This document shows, in pieces, positions 49,706-53,425 of a DNA stretch of 64,000 nt (positions within the stretch are counted from its first letter, which is position 1; each line of letters starts with the position of its first letter). The position numbers and the translations under genes were made by a program. The stretch lies in the NCBI GenBank assembly GCA_038998335.1, contig JAVZHQ010000002.1, positions 74,689 to 138,688 on the forward strand, written 5' to 3'. The DNA is from Candidatus Aenigmatarchaeota archaeon. GTDB taxonomy: Archaea; Aenigmatarchaeota; Aenigmatarchaeia; CG10238-14; SCSR01. The notes beneath the pieces were generated by a model. That model did no database searches and had not been told where the DNA came from. It saw only the letters and a program-made list of their open reading frames with translations.

Positions 49706-50281
49706 TTAATTTTTTTCTAAACTCCTTCTTTTCATCTCTTCTTCCTTCTTTTTCATATAAGCTTCATAAATTATGTCAAATTTTTCCAAAATAGCTGATT
49801 GATGGGGTTTTTCGATTTTTTGAATAATTGTAGGAGATTGGTACATTTCTCCTAAAACTTTCATTAAATGAATTTTTACAAGTAAAAGCCTGTCTATATT
49901 CTTATCCAACCTTCCTCCATCCTTTACTTCATACCACTTAGCCACTTCAAGTCTTCTATCTATATCTTCAAGCTCATTCCACATTAAATTTATTAATTGC
50001 TCCACATTTCTTGTGTTATATTTTTTGATTATAATTTTTTTGAAAGCACAAATCGCTCCTGTCTGATAAAAGCTACACCTATCTCTTATATAGCAACTAT
50101 CACAATCAATTATTTTAAATCTTCTCGCTCTCATCCCATGCTTAAATGCTGCCAAATTTCCTTTTACAAACCTTCCTGTTTTAGGGTCTCTGTCAATCTG
50201 CTTTACAACTGTTTCTCTGCTATCCTTAATTTTATTTTCACCGTTTGTGTTTTCTTGACCAACGGTGACCATAAACATCAC
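49706..50281 (-). CDS. hypothetical protein with terminase-small-subunit-like motif and 4-Cys cluster
   Basis: RDPKTGRFVKGN.AAFKHG then CDSC..RC..C; start overlaps integrase stop. Confidence 0.55.
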   Translation of the reverse strand: MMFMVTVGQENTNGENKIKDSRETVVKQIDRDPKTGRFVKGNLAAFKHGMRARRFKIIDCDSCYIRDRCSFYQTGAICAFKKIIIKKYNTRNVEQLINLMWNELEDIDRRLEVAKWYEVKDGGRLDKNIDRLLLVKIHLMKVLGEMYQSPTIIQKIEKPHQSAILEKFDIIYEAYMKKKEEEMKRRSLEKN

Positions 50282-51444
50282 TCCTCAAACAAATATTCCA
50301 AACCTCTCTCCTTGACCATTTGCCTAAAAACCTCTTTTACACTTTCGTCCCTATTTGCCAACACCAAAAGAAAATCTTTAACAAAATCATCAAAATCTTT
50401 CCTCACCTTTTCAGCTTCCAAAATCATTTTAATATCCAAAGGAGAGCCACACCTTTTACAAAAACTAAAAGATGATGGGTTGACTTCACCACATTTAAAA
50501 CATTTCTTAACTTCCTTGTTCATAACTTCTAAGAGCTTTTCATCTATCTCCTTTCCTGATAAATGATAATAAACAGAAGCCATCTTGCTATCTTTAGTCC
50601 AACCGAATATTTCCTTCATCACAGCTTCTGGTAAATGTTTTGCTAAATGAGTAGCTCTTGCGTGTCTGAAAGCATGAGGATTCACTCTTTTTTTAATTCC
50701 AACTTTCTCAGCCAACTTTTTTAAAATAGATTCAACTTGCACATAGGTTATTAATCCTCGTTTGTTTTTGCCCAAAGATATCCACACATAAGCTTCTGGG
50801 TCGTTTCTTAAAGGATGTACATCTAACCAATTTTCTAATTCCTTAACATACTCTATTATTCTCACTCTTCTCATTCCAGTTTTTCCGTCAACTATTAACA
50901 CACAGCCATGCTCATCAAAAATTATATTTTTAATTTTTAGGGAAAGCAACTCTCCTACTCTGCAACCCGATTCATAAAGTACGAGAACTAGGGCTTTATC
51001 TCTAAGATTGTTTGCTACTTTAGCCATCCTTTCTATTTCTTCTTTAGTCAAAATCTCTTCTGGTAAGAACTTGTTTTTCAACTTATGATTTAACTTAATC
51101 CATTCTACTTCTTCAGGATAAGTATTTGAGTTTCTCAACCATTTATAAAACCTCTTTAGCTCGCATTTAATCGCAGTTTTAGATTTCTCACTTCCGTACC
51201 TATTCTCTACTTCACTAACAACAGCTATGATATCCTCTTTTGTAGCTTCTGTAAATGGTTTGTTGAGAATTTTTGCTATCGTGGACAAAGCCCAAAGAAC
51301 ATTCCTCAAAGTAGCTTTTCTGAAGCCGTTTGCATTAAGAAGATTGAAGAACTTGAAGATAAGCTGTTTGTTCTCTTCGCATATAGAAGAGTTTTTAATT
51401 CTCTCAATATCTTTTTCCAAGCTTCTGGCAGTATTTAAGCTCAT
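50278..51444 (-). CDS. tyrosine recombinase/integrase with C-terminal zinc ribbon
   Basis: ESGCRVGE (R), DGKTG (K), HAFRH, FGW, VYYHL (Y); CFKCG..CKRCG. Confidence 0.95.
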   Translation of the reverse strand: MSLNTARSLEKDIERIKNSSICEENKQLIFKFFNLLNANGFRKATLRNVLWALSTIAKILNKPFTEATKEDIIAVVSEVENRYGSEKSKTAIKCELKRFYKWLRNSNTYPEEVEWIKLNHKLKNKFLPEEILTKEEIERMAKVANNLRDKALVLVLYESGCRVGELLSLKIKNIIFDEHGCVLIVDGKTGMRRVRIIEYVKELENWLDVHPLRNDPEAYVWISLGKNKRGLITYVQVESILKKLAEKVGIKKRVNPHAFRHARATHLAKHLPEAVMKEIFGWTKDSKMASVYYHLSGKEIDEKLLEVMNKEVKKCFKCGEVNPSSFSFCKRCGSPLDIKMILEAEKVRKDFDDFVKDFLLVLANRDESVKEVFRQMVKERGLEYLFEE

Positions 51445-51941: not shown

Positions 51942-53075
51942 ATGAAAATTGATTTAGAAAACATAGCAAAAGAAGTTTTTAAGAAAAAACCTTTGGTAAT
52001 AAAAAAAATAGACAAAAATCTAATTAAAGTTTTCTATAAAGGTAAAAGTCCAAGAAACACACCAAAACCAATAATTCTTCCAAAAATAATAAATTTGGAT
52101 GAAGAAATTATTGAGAATGTTGGAATGTACATTGGTGATGGAACTCTCTCACCAACCAGAAAACATCAAATAGAATTTACTACTATAGATGTAGACATGG
52201 CAAAAAAATTCCTCGATTTTTTAACGAAAAGATGGTGTGTTAAAATACAAAATATAACCTTTATTTTAAAGTACAACAAAGGAAACAAAAAAACAATAAA
52301 AGAAAAATGGAAAAAATATCTAAATGTCCCAAGTGAAAAACTTCTAGTTAAAAAAGAAACTAAATATAATGCTCGAGATTCTCTGACAATTATTGTTAAC
52401 AGCTTGATTTTTACTCAAGTATTCAAAAAATTTATTAAAAAATCACTACCATTAATTAAACTAAATTCTAAATTAATAAAAGCATTTCTAAGAGGAGAAT
52501 TTGCAGCTGATGGAAAATTTATAGTAGAAAAAGATACCAATACCTACTATATCTCTGAAATAACCTTCTGTTATAACTATCCTAAAGAGTTATGGTTACG
52601 GAATTACTTAGTCGAATGCCTAACGAAAGAAGGAATAACAAAAATCAATGAAAACCGAAAAGGCTTTATTAGAATTACCGGCTGGAATAATTATTTTAAA
52701 TTATGGAAGATGGGAATTTTTAACTGTTGTAAGAGAAAAAAAGAAAAATTTCTATCAACGATTAAACAATCAAAAATTCATCTTATGGTAGATGTTGAAA
52801 CAATTAAACAAATTATAAATTCTTCGAGTCTGACCAAAAAGGCCATAGCAAATAAAGTTGGTATAAATAGATCAAATCTTTTTAGAGTTCTAAATGGTAA
52901 ACAACTTATGACAATTGAACAATTTAATGCACTTACTCAATTAATTGATAATCATTTAAATACTTATCAAAATCAAATAAGTAAAATTAGGATTGGTAAA
53001 CTTACTTATTTGCCATTTTCCCGAGAATTTATAAATTTTGTTGCAAAAGAAAAATTGATAAAAGGTGATAGGTAA
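51942..53075 (+). CDS. free-standing two-motif LAGLIDADG endonuclease with C-terminal XRE-like HTH
   Basis: VGMYIGDG and FLRGEFAADG motifs; LTKKAIANKVGINRSNLFRVLNG HTH. Confidence 0.85.
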   Translation: MKIDLENIAKEVFKKKPLVIKKIDKNLIKVFYKGKSPRNTPKPIILPKIINLDEEIIENVGMYIGDGTLSPTRKHQIEFTTIDVDMAKKFLDFLTKRWCVKIQNITFILKYNKGNKKTIKEKWKKYLNVPSEKLLVKKETKYNARDSLTIIVNSLIFTQVFKKFIKKSLPLIKLNSKLIKAFLRGEFAADGKFIVEKDTNTYYISEITFCYNYPKELWLRNYLVECLTKEGITKINENRKGFIRITGWNNYFKLWKMGIFNCCKRKKEKFLSTIKQSKIHLMVDVETIKQIINSSSLTKKAIANKVGINRSNLFRVLNGKQLMTIEQFNALTQLIDNHLNTYQNQISKIRIGKLTYLPFSREFINFVAKEKLIKGDR

Positions 53076-53425
53076 ATGCAAATAGCAAGAATAAAACTTT
53101 TAGGAAGAGACCCAAAAGAATTGGATAGCATTTGCAATGAAATAAAGGAAATAGCAAAAAAATTAGGTGTAGATTATAGAGGACCGATTCCCTTACCAAC
53201 AAAAAAATTGAAAGTAGTAACTATGAAAACTCCTTGTGGCGACGGGACACTAAACTAGACATCTAGTTTAGCCCGAAAGGCCATGGAAATGCTACTTTTG
53301 ATAGATGGGAGATGAGAATTCATAAGCGTCTAATAGATGTTAAAGCTGATGAAAGAGCTTTAAGACAAATAATGAGAATTAATATTCCTACTAATGTTCA
53401 CATTGAAATCAAGCTTTTAGGTTAA
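53076..53425 (+). CDS. rps10: 30S ribosomal protein S10, spliced: join(53076..53248,53278..53425), 106 aa
   Basis: Exon 1 MQIARIKL...GPIPLPT...KTPCGDG; exon 2 ...[14 protein letters not shown]...RQIMRI..P..V.IEI in another frame; 29-nt removal restores the frame. Confidence 0.92.
53249..53277 (+). other. predicted 29-nt bulge-helix-bulge mRNA intron in rps10
   Basis: CGGG-AC^A-CTAAACTAGA-CA-TCTAGTTTAG-CCCG-AA^A. Confidence 0.85.

Follow-up and report, generated by a model that had tools for sequence, protein, structure and literature searches.

How an archaeon can make ribosomal protein S10 from a gene that is interrupted by a stop codon and resumes in another frame is the question raised by rps10 in the DNA analyzed here, a window of 64,000 nucleotides (nt) from the 1.0-Mb genome (9 contigs, 90% complete) of a hot-spring member of the Aenigmatarchaeota (DPANN). 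Positions without a contig name refer to this window, G000 denotes the source genome, and other G numbers denote genomes of relatives. On the plus strand rps10 spans positions 53076–53425, and 29 nt at 53249–53277 interrupt it behind codon 57. The original prediction held that this break represents a BHB (bulge-helix-bulge) intron, removed from the mRNA by the tRNA-splicing endonuclease EndA. The best overall explanation is very likely just that, a genuine EndA-spliced BHB intron in rps10; a second and less certain layer is that the intron and a neighboring homing endonuclease gene form a mobile pair.

As read from the DNA, an open reading frame (ORF) of 60 amino acids (aa) at 53076–53258 encodes the N-terminal part of S10 and ends at a TAG codon (53256–53258), and the C-terminal half is open in a different frame from 53267 to 53425; the truncation and frame change described originally are both upheld by the ORFs and by matches to the Pfam S10 profile. 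Exon 1 (53076–53248, plus strand) comprises 57 codons plus 2 nt, ends in GGG AC and matches positions 1–52 of Pfam Ribosomal_S10, and exon 2 (53278–53425, plus strand) comprises 1 nt plus 48 codons, ends at the stop codon TAA (53423–53425) and matches profile positions 41–98. Excision of the intervening 29 nt, which contain the in-frame TAG, gives the claimed S10 ORF of 106 aa, whose product differs by a single residue from S10 of G001, an intron-less species of the same genus. A Pfam profile search of the genome, within its 90% completeness, finds one S10 locus. S10 synthesis therefore very probably depends on the tRNA-splicing enzymes if, as proposed, the protein is made from the spliced mRNA only.

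The 76 nt of RNA around the break have one dominant fold, which has an energy of −25.5 kcal/mol (z = −4.06) and makes up 60% of the ensemble; none of 200 shuffled sequences folds as well. Its outer helix pairs GUGGC of exon 1 (53236–53240) with GCCAU of exon 2 (53280–53284) and is extended by up to three further pairs; its central 4-bp helix pairs CGGG of exon 1 (53243–53246) with CCCG of the intron (53272–53275); the bulge ACA at the 5' splice site (53247–53249) follows, and then an inner hairpin (53250–53271) of nine perfect pairs (53250–53258 with 53263–53271) and the loop ACAU (53259–53262). The central helix, the 5' bulge and the perfect hairpin are as predicted; the outer helix, previously described as an imperfect TGGC/GCCA pairing, does exist and is refined to the strands given above. 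The 3-nt bulge proposed at the 3' site (AA^A) needs correction: there AAAG (53276–53279) faces GA (53241–53242) in an asymmetric internal loop, and the motif, called type A below, is therefore relaxed on its 3' side. EndA canonically cuts after the second base of a bulge. From this rule and the restoration of frame, the 5' cut would fall after 53248 and the 3' cut, two bases past the central helix, after 53277; the rule agrees with the geometry described in PMC4090602.

Structure and frame restoration alone are weak evidence, because our own loose scan for a BHB motif combined with ORF fusion returned 1306 hits across the 1-Mb genome. A stricter scan gave 8 hits, of which rps10 was the only one that looked real, and a variant tuned to short first exons gave 219. 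The scanner was too noisy, and further split genes were instead located downstream of LAGLIDADG ORFs, as described below. The case for the predicted intron rests on comparison with relatives.

Two surveys, one of the order (118 genomes, S10 found in 113) and one of the phylum (371 genomes, S10 found in 332), both show split S10 genes in nine species, all from the window's own family, so that the search for split rps10 in relatives urged by the original prediction was amply rewarded. Two introns are present among them. Type A interrupts the Thr codon in the motif CGDGTGHGN (GGN AC|A GGC) in six species of four genera, with the same 5' and 3' ends in all four, and measures 29 nt in G000, 29 nt in G002 (an identical insert), 28 nt in G004, 30 nt in G019, 30 nt in G062 and 32 nt in G072. 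Type B lies 7 nt upstream of the type A site, inside an Asp codon (GGA G|AT GG), in a single genus, and measures 33 nt in G079, 32 nt in G080 and 35 nt in G082; it has the textbook arrangement of 3-nt bulge, 4-bp helix and 3-nt bulge, with bulges AGC (5') and UUA (3') in all three species. In all five distinct type A alleles the 5' bulge is the 3 nt between the central helix and the inner hairpin (ACU in G072). When the cut rule is applied (one cut behind the second 5'-bulge base, the other two bases past the central helix), each of the eight distinct alleles (28, 29, 30, 30 and 32 nt for type A; 32, 33 and 35 nt for type B) gives an S10 of 106 aa; the intron lengths cover all three residue classes modulo 3, yet the spliced frame is always kept. 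The junction created by splicing is also that of undisturbed genes, as CGDGTGHGN is found in 25 of 30 intron-less alleles, with CGDGCGHGN in four and CGDSTGHGN in one. Presence is patchy within genera: species with the intron number 3 of 4 species with S10 in genus g1, 3 of 10 in g6, 1 of 6 in g11 and 1 of 3 in g3. No second full S10 match was found in any of the nine split genomes. Weak S10 scores, seven in the phylum survey and one (G098) in that of the order, come from genes truncated where a contig ends and add no further splits.

Pairing is maintained as these sequences diverge. When the five distinct type A alleles are aligned with MAFFT, 95% of 100 pair cells hold standard pairs, a value that none of 500 column shuffles reaches and that falls to 27–51% when partners are slid by 1–3 columns; as the five sequences are related, and kin can beat shuffles without any structure, these figures are indicative and no statistical proof. 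The outer helix (7 pairs) is paired in 97% of cells across the five alleles and the central helix in 100%, the latter with one double-sided change and three changes involving G-U; the double-sided change is in G062, where the exon Gly codon GGG becomes GGC and its intron partner changes from C to G. Two pairs of the inner hairpin have changed on both sides among relatives, and the hairpin tips are almost wholly different between genera and still paired. The alignment shifts the G019 hairpin by one bulged base, which lowers the hairpin count, and the fold of G019 by itself is intact. Because the exon side of the helices also codes for protein, pairing constrains its synonymous sites: TGT GGC GAC GG(G/C) AC|A GGC CA(T/C) is fixed in 5 of 5 type A alleles, whereas TGT GGC GAC occurs in 0 of 30 intron-less alleles, where the third positions vary freely. 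In all three type B alleles a Ser codon (AGT) replaces the Cys codon (TGT) beside the intron and thereby supplies an A-U pair in the outer helix. Over both exons G000 and G004 differ by 31 synonymous and 3 non-synonymous codons, a pattern which indicates that both exons are under purifying selection.

The insert is also recovered in data from elsewhere. Contigs of two other hot-spring studies, X2 (a record of 1842 nt) and X3 (929 nt), match the window without gaps over 52600–53335 and 52600–53307, and both reach from the 3' end of the nuclease gene through exon 1 and the insert into exon 2; the DNA is thereby confirmed as real. X2 carries two strain variants in the motif, A53249T, which changes the third bulge base to that of G072, and T53284C, which turns an outer-helix G-U pair into G-C. 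A search of GTDB species genomes with an 18-nt exon-intron pattern found, among archaea, no rps10 loci beyond five already known, and a degenerate 27-nt pattern yielded a single contig from JGI metagenomes, twin to the G062 allele. Outside rps10 the 18-nt pattern hit 54 unrelated stretches; apart from one these are bacterial, and many come from Patescibacteria (candidate phyla radiation, CPR). The warning that such genes would be misannotated proved well founded: the six members of one 90%-identity cluster of public protein calls are N-terminal fragments of 60 aa (four), a C-terminal fragment of 63 aa and a form of 116 aa, and two of them are named S10. In the 116-aa form a stop-free insert is read through as 10 extra residues, and the first residues of the 63-aa fragment are a read-through of a variant intron; public metagenomes hold more alleles than the species genomes show.

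The enzymes that such splicing would require are encoded in the genome. EndA is represented by one gene of 188 aa with N-terminal and catalytic domains (PF01974, E = 2e-27), located on the minus strand of G000:C1 (1477–2040 of locus L036), and from its size and single copy we infer an alpha4-like enzyme. The ligase RtcB is present (PF01139, E = 7.9e-165), in a gene with two in-frame TAA codons; both codons fall within an insert of 18 nt, which takes the form bulge, 4-bp helix, bulge and whose removal joins GY to GFPIGG. With its intron option on, ARAGORN marks 19 of 46 tRNA genes as intron-bearing, some of these calls being doubtful. In the proposed sequence of events, exon GUGGC..CGGG of the pre-mRNA would pair with exon GCCAU and intron CCCG around the 9-bp intron hairpin; EndA would cut at 53248|53249 (AC|A, in the 5' bulge) and at 53277|53278 (AA|AG); and RtcB would ligate the exons, so that the 29 nt and their in-frame TAG are lost and a normal 106-aa S10 is translated. 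These cuts and their joining are predicted with high confidence from the structure, the comparison with relatives and the enzyme genes.

Several observations weigh against this splicing scheme. The 3' site of type A, a 2 × 4 asymmetric internal loop, has no clean 3-nt bulge, and such a relaxed site needs an EndA of relaxed specificity, the single EndA here looking like the alpha4 kind, which is classically strict; the report that DPANN alpha4-type EndAs with an extra loop accompany many disrupted tRNA genes (PMC5829648, in the part of that paper on these enzymes) fits the cutting of a relaxed motif here. RtcB, required for ligation, is itself interrupted in the source genome. No sequencing run on record as RNA spans 53172–53303, and the same holds for X12 and X14, which are labelled metatranscriptomic and flagged as probably DNA, a result uninformative on splicing either way. 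Three other accounts of the break must be set beside the spliced intron. If rps10 were a decaying pseudogene, the 29 nt would be disabling and S10 would be supplied by another copy or be dispensable; the ORF is indeed truncated at 60 aa with its remainder out of frame, gene callers predict fragments only, and a genome 90% complete leaves room for a second copy in the missing part. Yet S10 is a universal ribosomal protein with a single locus here, nine species retain the interruption with both halves intact and without a second full match, the codon differences between G000 and G004 are overwhelmingly synonymous in both exons, and length changes among inserts of 28–35 nt always preserve the spliced frame. 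The intact second copy whose discovery would have favored decay was thus sought without success, and this reading, very improbable in our judgment, is largely refuted. That the 29 nt are an artefact of assembly or sequencing, absent from the real DNA, is more improbable still: the source is a metagenome-assembled genome, and contigs of relatives do break near the locus (at most 206 nt upstream in G002 and at most 141 nt upstream in G004), but contigs from two independent studies cross the site, G002 has the identical insert, and diverged versions occur in seven further species and one metagenome contig. Translational recoding, in which the ribosome would bypass the gap or shift frame with no RNA splicing, has in its favor that the break is soon followed by a stop codon and that the gap contains a stable hairpin, features shared with known bypass elements such as that of the ribosome hopping reportedly seen in T4 gene 60. 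It is nevertheless very improbable, since the flanks have no matching take-off and landing codons (ACA before the gap, and AAA or AUA before GGC after it), since the gaps vary widely in sequence and in length (28–35 nt) at two sites while the helix-bulge-helix geometry and the exon-intron covariation are conserved, and since type B is a textbook 3-4-3 BHB. The spliced BHB intron is thus supported by the single locus, the match of the spliced junction to intron-less genes, the frame restoration, the covariation and the presence of EndA and RtcB.

The second layer concerns the gene that adjoins rps10, which the original prediction does not mention, as it does not mention the type B intron of relatives or the other split genes of this genome. 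An ORF at 51942–53075 (plus strand, 377 aa plus stop) is free-standing, and its stop codon abuts the rps10 ATG. Its product has two LAGLIDADG motifs and a C-terminal helix-turn-helix; alignment shows conservation of the motifs G.Y.GDG and FLRG.FAA(D/E)G, and of their acidic residues (YIGDG and FAADG here) the first D never varies across five homologues, in which the second can be D or E. Pfam LAGLIDADG_3 is marginal for the window protein (E = 2.2e-4) and matches all five aligned homologues (best E = 5.3e-6). A sequence search of the PDB returned the C-terminal helix-turn-helix alone, and a fold search was therefore needed: with an AlphaFold 2 (AF2) model (pLDDT 86.9) the top Foldseek matches are homing endonucleases (TliVMA intein, PI-SceI, I-DmoI, I-AniI and I-Tsp061I), those to PI-SceI, I-DmoI and I-AniI having probability 1.00 at TM scores of just ~0.3–0.57. 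The ORF is thus a predicted LAGLIDADG homing endonuclease gene. About 500 nt upstream of it, at 50278–51444 on the minus strand, lies a tyrosine recombinase gene (Phage_integrase, E = 8.6e-27) whose product has a C-terminal zinc ribbon, and the tuf-rps10 linkage seen in G003, G062, G079 and G080 is broken in the source genome. The closest homologue in the order, 44% identical, lies 29 nt upstream of rps10 in G082, which carries the type B intron, and there the nuclease gene sits in a ~1.7-kb insertion within the tuf-rps10 spacer. Homologues occur in 18 genomes; they adjoin rps10 in three (G000, G002 and G082), all of which have the intron, and in the other 15 the homologue and rps10 are on different contigs. 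The intron-less G001, G003 and G012 have no nuclease gene beside rps10. The homologues of G020, G073, G070 and G085 (32–37% identity), which had been expected to precede split genes, proved instead to be convergent to topoisomerase VI genes, lying tail to tail with genes for its subunits (G020:C114, G073:C14, G070:C95 and G085:C36).

The same layout recurs in the source genome. LAGLIDADG_3 has 31 matches in the 1-Mb genome, many within ORFs of 800–2046 aa that are probably multi-intein genes, and the homing-element load of this genome is unusually heavy. Four of the eight free-standing LAGLIDADG ORFs examined directly precede a protein gene with a mini-intron: rps10 (29 nt, 173 nt into the gene, relaxed on the 3' side), rtcB (18 nt, ~225 nt into the gene), alba (31 nt, 49 nt into the gene) and fbp (23 nt, 43 nt into the gene). 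The rtcB insert is at G000:C1 ~120826–120843 (1576–1593 of locus L037), downstream of a 279-aa LAGLIDADG ORF (L037 515–1354; Pfam E = 8e-24) that overlaps the start of rtcB; the splicing ligase would itself need splicing. At the alba locus (L118, G000:C1:674900–676500, minus strand) the nuclease ORF (636–1442, 269 aa) ends 2 nt ahead of the alba ATG and alba extends downstream to 312; the insert forms a canonical BHB with outer helix UUUG/CAAA, central helix UCGG/CCGA and bulges ACA and AUG, and the Pfam match starts at profile position 9. At the fbp locus (L119, G000:C1:45500–47800; FBPase_3, fructose-1,6-bisphosphatase) a 315-aa LAGLIDADG ORF (133–1080) lies directly upstream of fbp, which begins at ~1109; the insert (~1152–1174) is again a canonical BHB, with outer helix GGCUG/CAGCC and central helix ACAU/GUGU, and the Pfam match likewise starts at profile position 9. 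A further LAGLIDADG ORF of 217 aa ends at C1:371550 (L120, G000:C1:370800–371800) and overlaps the start of a tRNA-Cys gene (371540–371646), in which a local ARAGORN run predicts a 31-nt intron; a separate ARAGORN run found no tRNA there. The local run also called a tRNA-Leu with an 800-nt intron at G000:C1:653838–654731, either a false call or a long intron able to hold an ORF.

In the mobile pair proposed here, the nuclease would cut intron-less rps10 within the conserved stretch that codes for CGDGTGHGN, double-strand-break repair would copy the nuclease gene, exon 1 and the intron into the cut allele, and the intron would split the target site and so shield its carrier; carriers of the intron that have no nuclease would have lost it after fixation. 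Two introns 7 nt apart beside homologous nucleases are what is expected if any BHB-forming insertion in the recognition site confers immunity. We hold these steps (nuclease target, repair copying and protection by the intron) with moderate confidence. By extension, and with about even chances, DPANN archaea may hold a hitherto undescribed class of mobile element made of a free-standing LAGLIDADG gene and, not far into the essential gene just downstream of it, an 18–35-nt BHB mini-intron, the intron serving as an immunity device rendered harmless by the tRNA-splicing enzymes, with members in rps10, rtcB, alba, fbp and perhaps tRNA-Cys of this genome.

Several points tell against the mobile pair. 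Five of the nine intron-bearing species (G019, G062, G072, G079 and G080) have no nuclease gene beside rps10, with tuf or a membrane-protein gene upstream instead, and the pair is therefore not obligatory (G004 is not scorable, as its contig ends ~140 nt upstream of rps10). Adjacency at rps10 represents two independent lineages at most, other nuclease homologues adjoin topoisomerase VI genes away from rps10, and RNA-structure constraint alone could explain the fixed synonymous sites. Some of these facts would also be accounted for if the spliced intron were old, vertically inherited and immobile and the nuclease gene an unrelated neighbor: the five species just named fit that history, the type A ends shared by four genera are what common descent predicts, and the cbf5 intron is described, in the relevant part of PMC2738675, as short, nuclease-free and vertically gained and lost. 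We regard an immobile intron as possible but rather unlikely. In two genera, each with a different intron, rps10 adjoins homologous nuclease genes, the same layout is present at three other protein genes of the source genome, presence of the intron is patchy within four genera, and the usual target of a free-standing homing endonuclease is a conserved gene beside its own, according to the account of them in PMC6083498.

If the rps10 intron is spliced as proposed, translation itself depends on tRNA-splicing enzymes and the substrate range of the small alpha4-like DPANN EndA widens; if the wider mobile-element class is real, EndA and RtcB would be needed for ribosome synthesis, chromatin and gluconeogenesis alike, and selfish nucleases would bring introns into archaeal protein genes as their immunity device. 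The link to nuclease genes, repeated at four protein genes of one genome, offers a testable route for intron origin and spread and is relevant to the long-standing problem of how protein-coding genes come to be colonized by introns. On the practical side, annotation pipelines lose essential genes of this kind, and estimates of completeness from marker genes are distorted.

Among known systems the nearest is the cbf5 pre-mRNA intron of Desulfurococcales and Sulfolobales, which is 16–44 bp long, is spliced by EndA, and has been both acquired and lost in related organisms (Watanabe 2002; Yoshinari 2006; Yokobori 2009, PMC2738675). In its passages on this intron the last of these papers states that splicing was confirmed for no other archaeal protein gene and that the cbf5 intron is too short to encode a nuclease; EndA papers of 2018 and 2025, where they turn to pre-mRNA substrates, cite the cbf5 work alone, and in the accessible portions of the searchable literature up to 2025 cbf5 is the only experimentally documented case of a protein-spliced intron in archaeal mRNA. 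Judged by that description of cbf5, the two introns are alike in being short, in interrupting a protein gene with a BHB or relaxed motif at their borders, in being patchily distributed and in being mistakable for a frameshift. They differ in host gene (rps10), in lineage (DPANN Aenigmatarchaeota) and in the existence here of two intron types 7 nt apart; they differ also in the enzyme, a hetero-oligomeric EndA in the cbf5 hosts as portrayed in those papers and a single 188-aa EndA here, and in the homing endonuclease gene that adjoins rps10, none being mentioned beside the intron in the cbf5 accounts cited. Splicing of cbf5 has been shown experimentally, whereas that of rps10 is deduced from sequence. 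The rps10 intron works like the cbf5 intron but is no member of the cbf5 type.

Archaeal tRNA introns have canonical or relaxed BHB motifs and lengths of 11–129 nt, going by the sections of PMC4090602 and PMC5829648 that treat them. On that description the rps10 intron shares with them the 4-bp helix between bulges, a size within range and the same enzymes, but its substrate is an mRNA and the exon strands of its helices are coding. The combination of a BHB intron and a LAGLIDADG nuclease as a mobile unit, proposed here for rps10, also has a parallel among archaeal rRNA introns. Some of these encode LAGLIDADG nucleases, I-DmoI and I-Tsp061I among them; in the rRNA case the nuclease gene lies within a long intron, whereas in rps10 the intron has 28–35 nt and the free-standing gene lies upstream of the start codon. 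Such rRNA introns are mentioned in PMC2738675. In its logic the proposed arrangement is that of collaborative homing, known from cyanophage S-PM2, where the free-standing nuclease F-CphI is paired with the group I intron of psbA (Zeng, Bonocora, Shub 2009, as summarized in PMC6083498). There too a free-standing nuclease gene lies beside a gene with an intron at the presumed target, and the intron would provide immunity and the nuclease mobility, as proposed for rps10. By the same summary that system pairs a self-splicing group I intron with an Endo VII-type nuclease in a phage, and the rps10 system would pair a protein-spliced BHB intron with a LAGLIDADG nuclease on an archaeal chromosome. Searches of the full-text literature, which leaves subscription journals and supplements outside, turned up no published report of an rps10 intron, as the original prediction had it, and none that links a BHB mini-intron to a free-standing nuclease. 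The comparison thus supports as new the host gene and the lineage of a known kind of intron, together with its association, unreported before, with a free-standing homing endonuclease gene.

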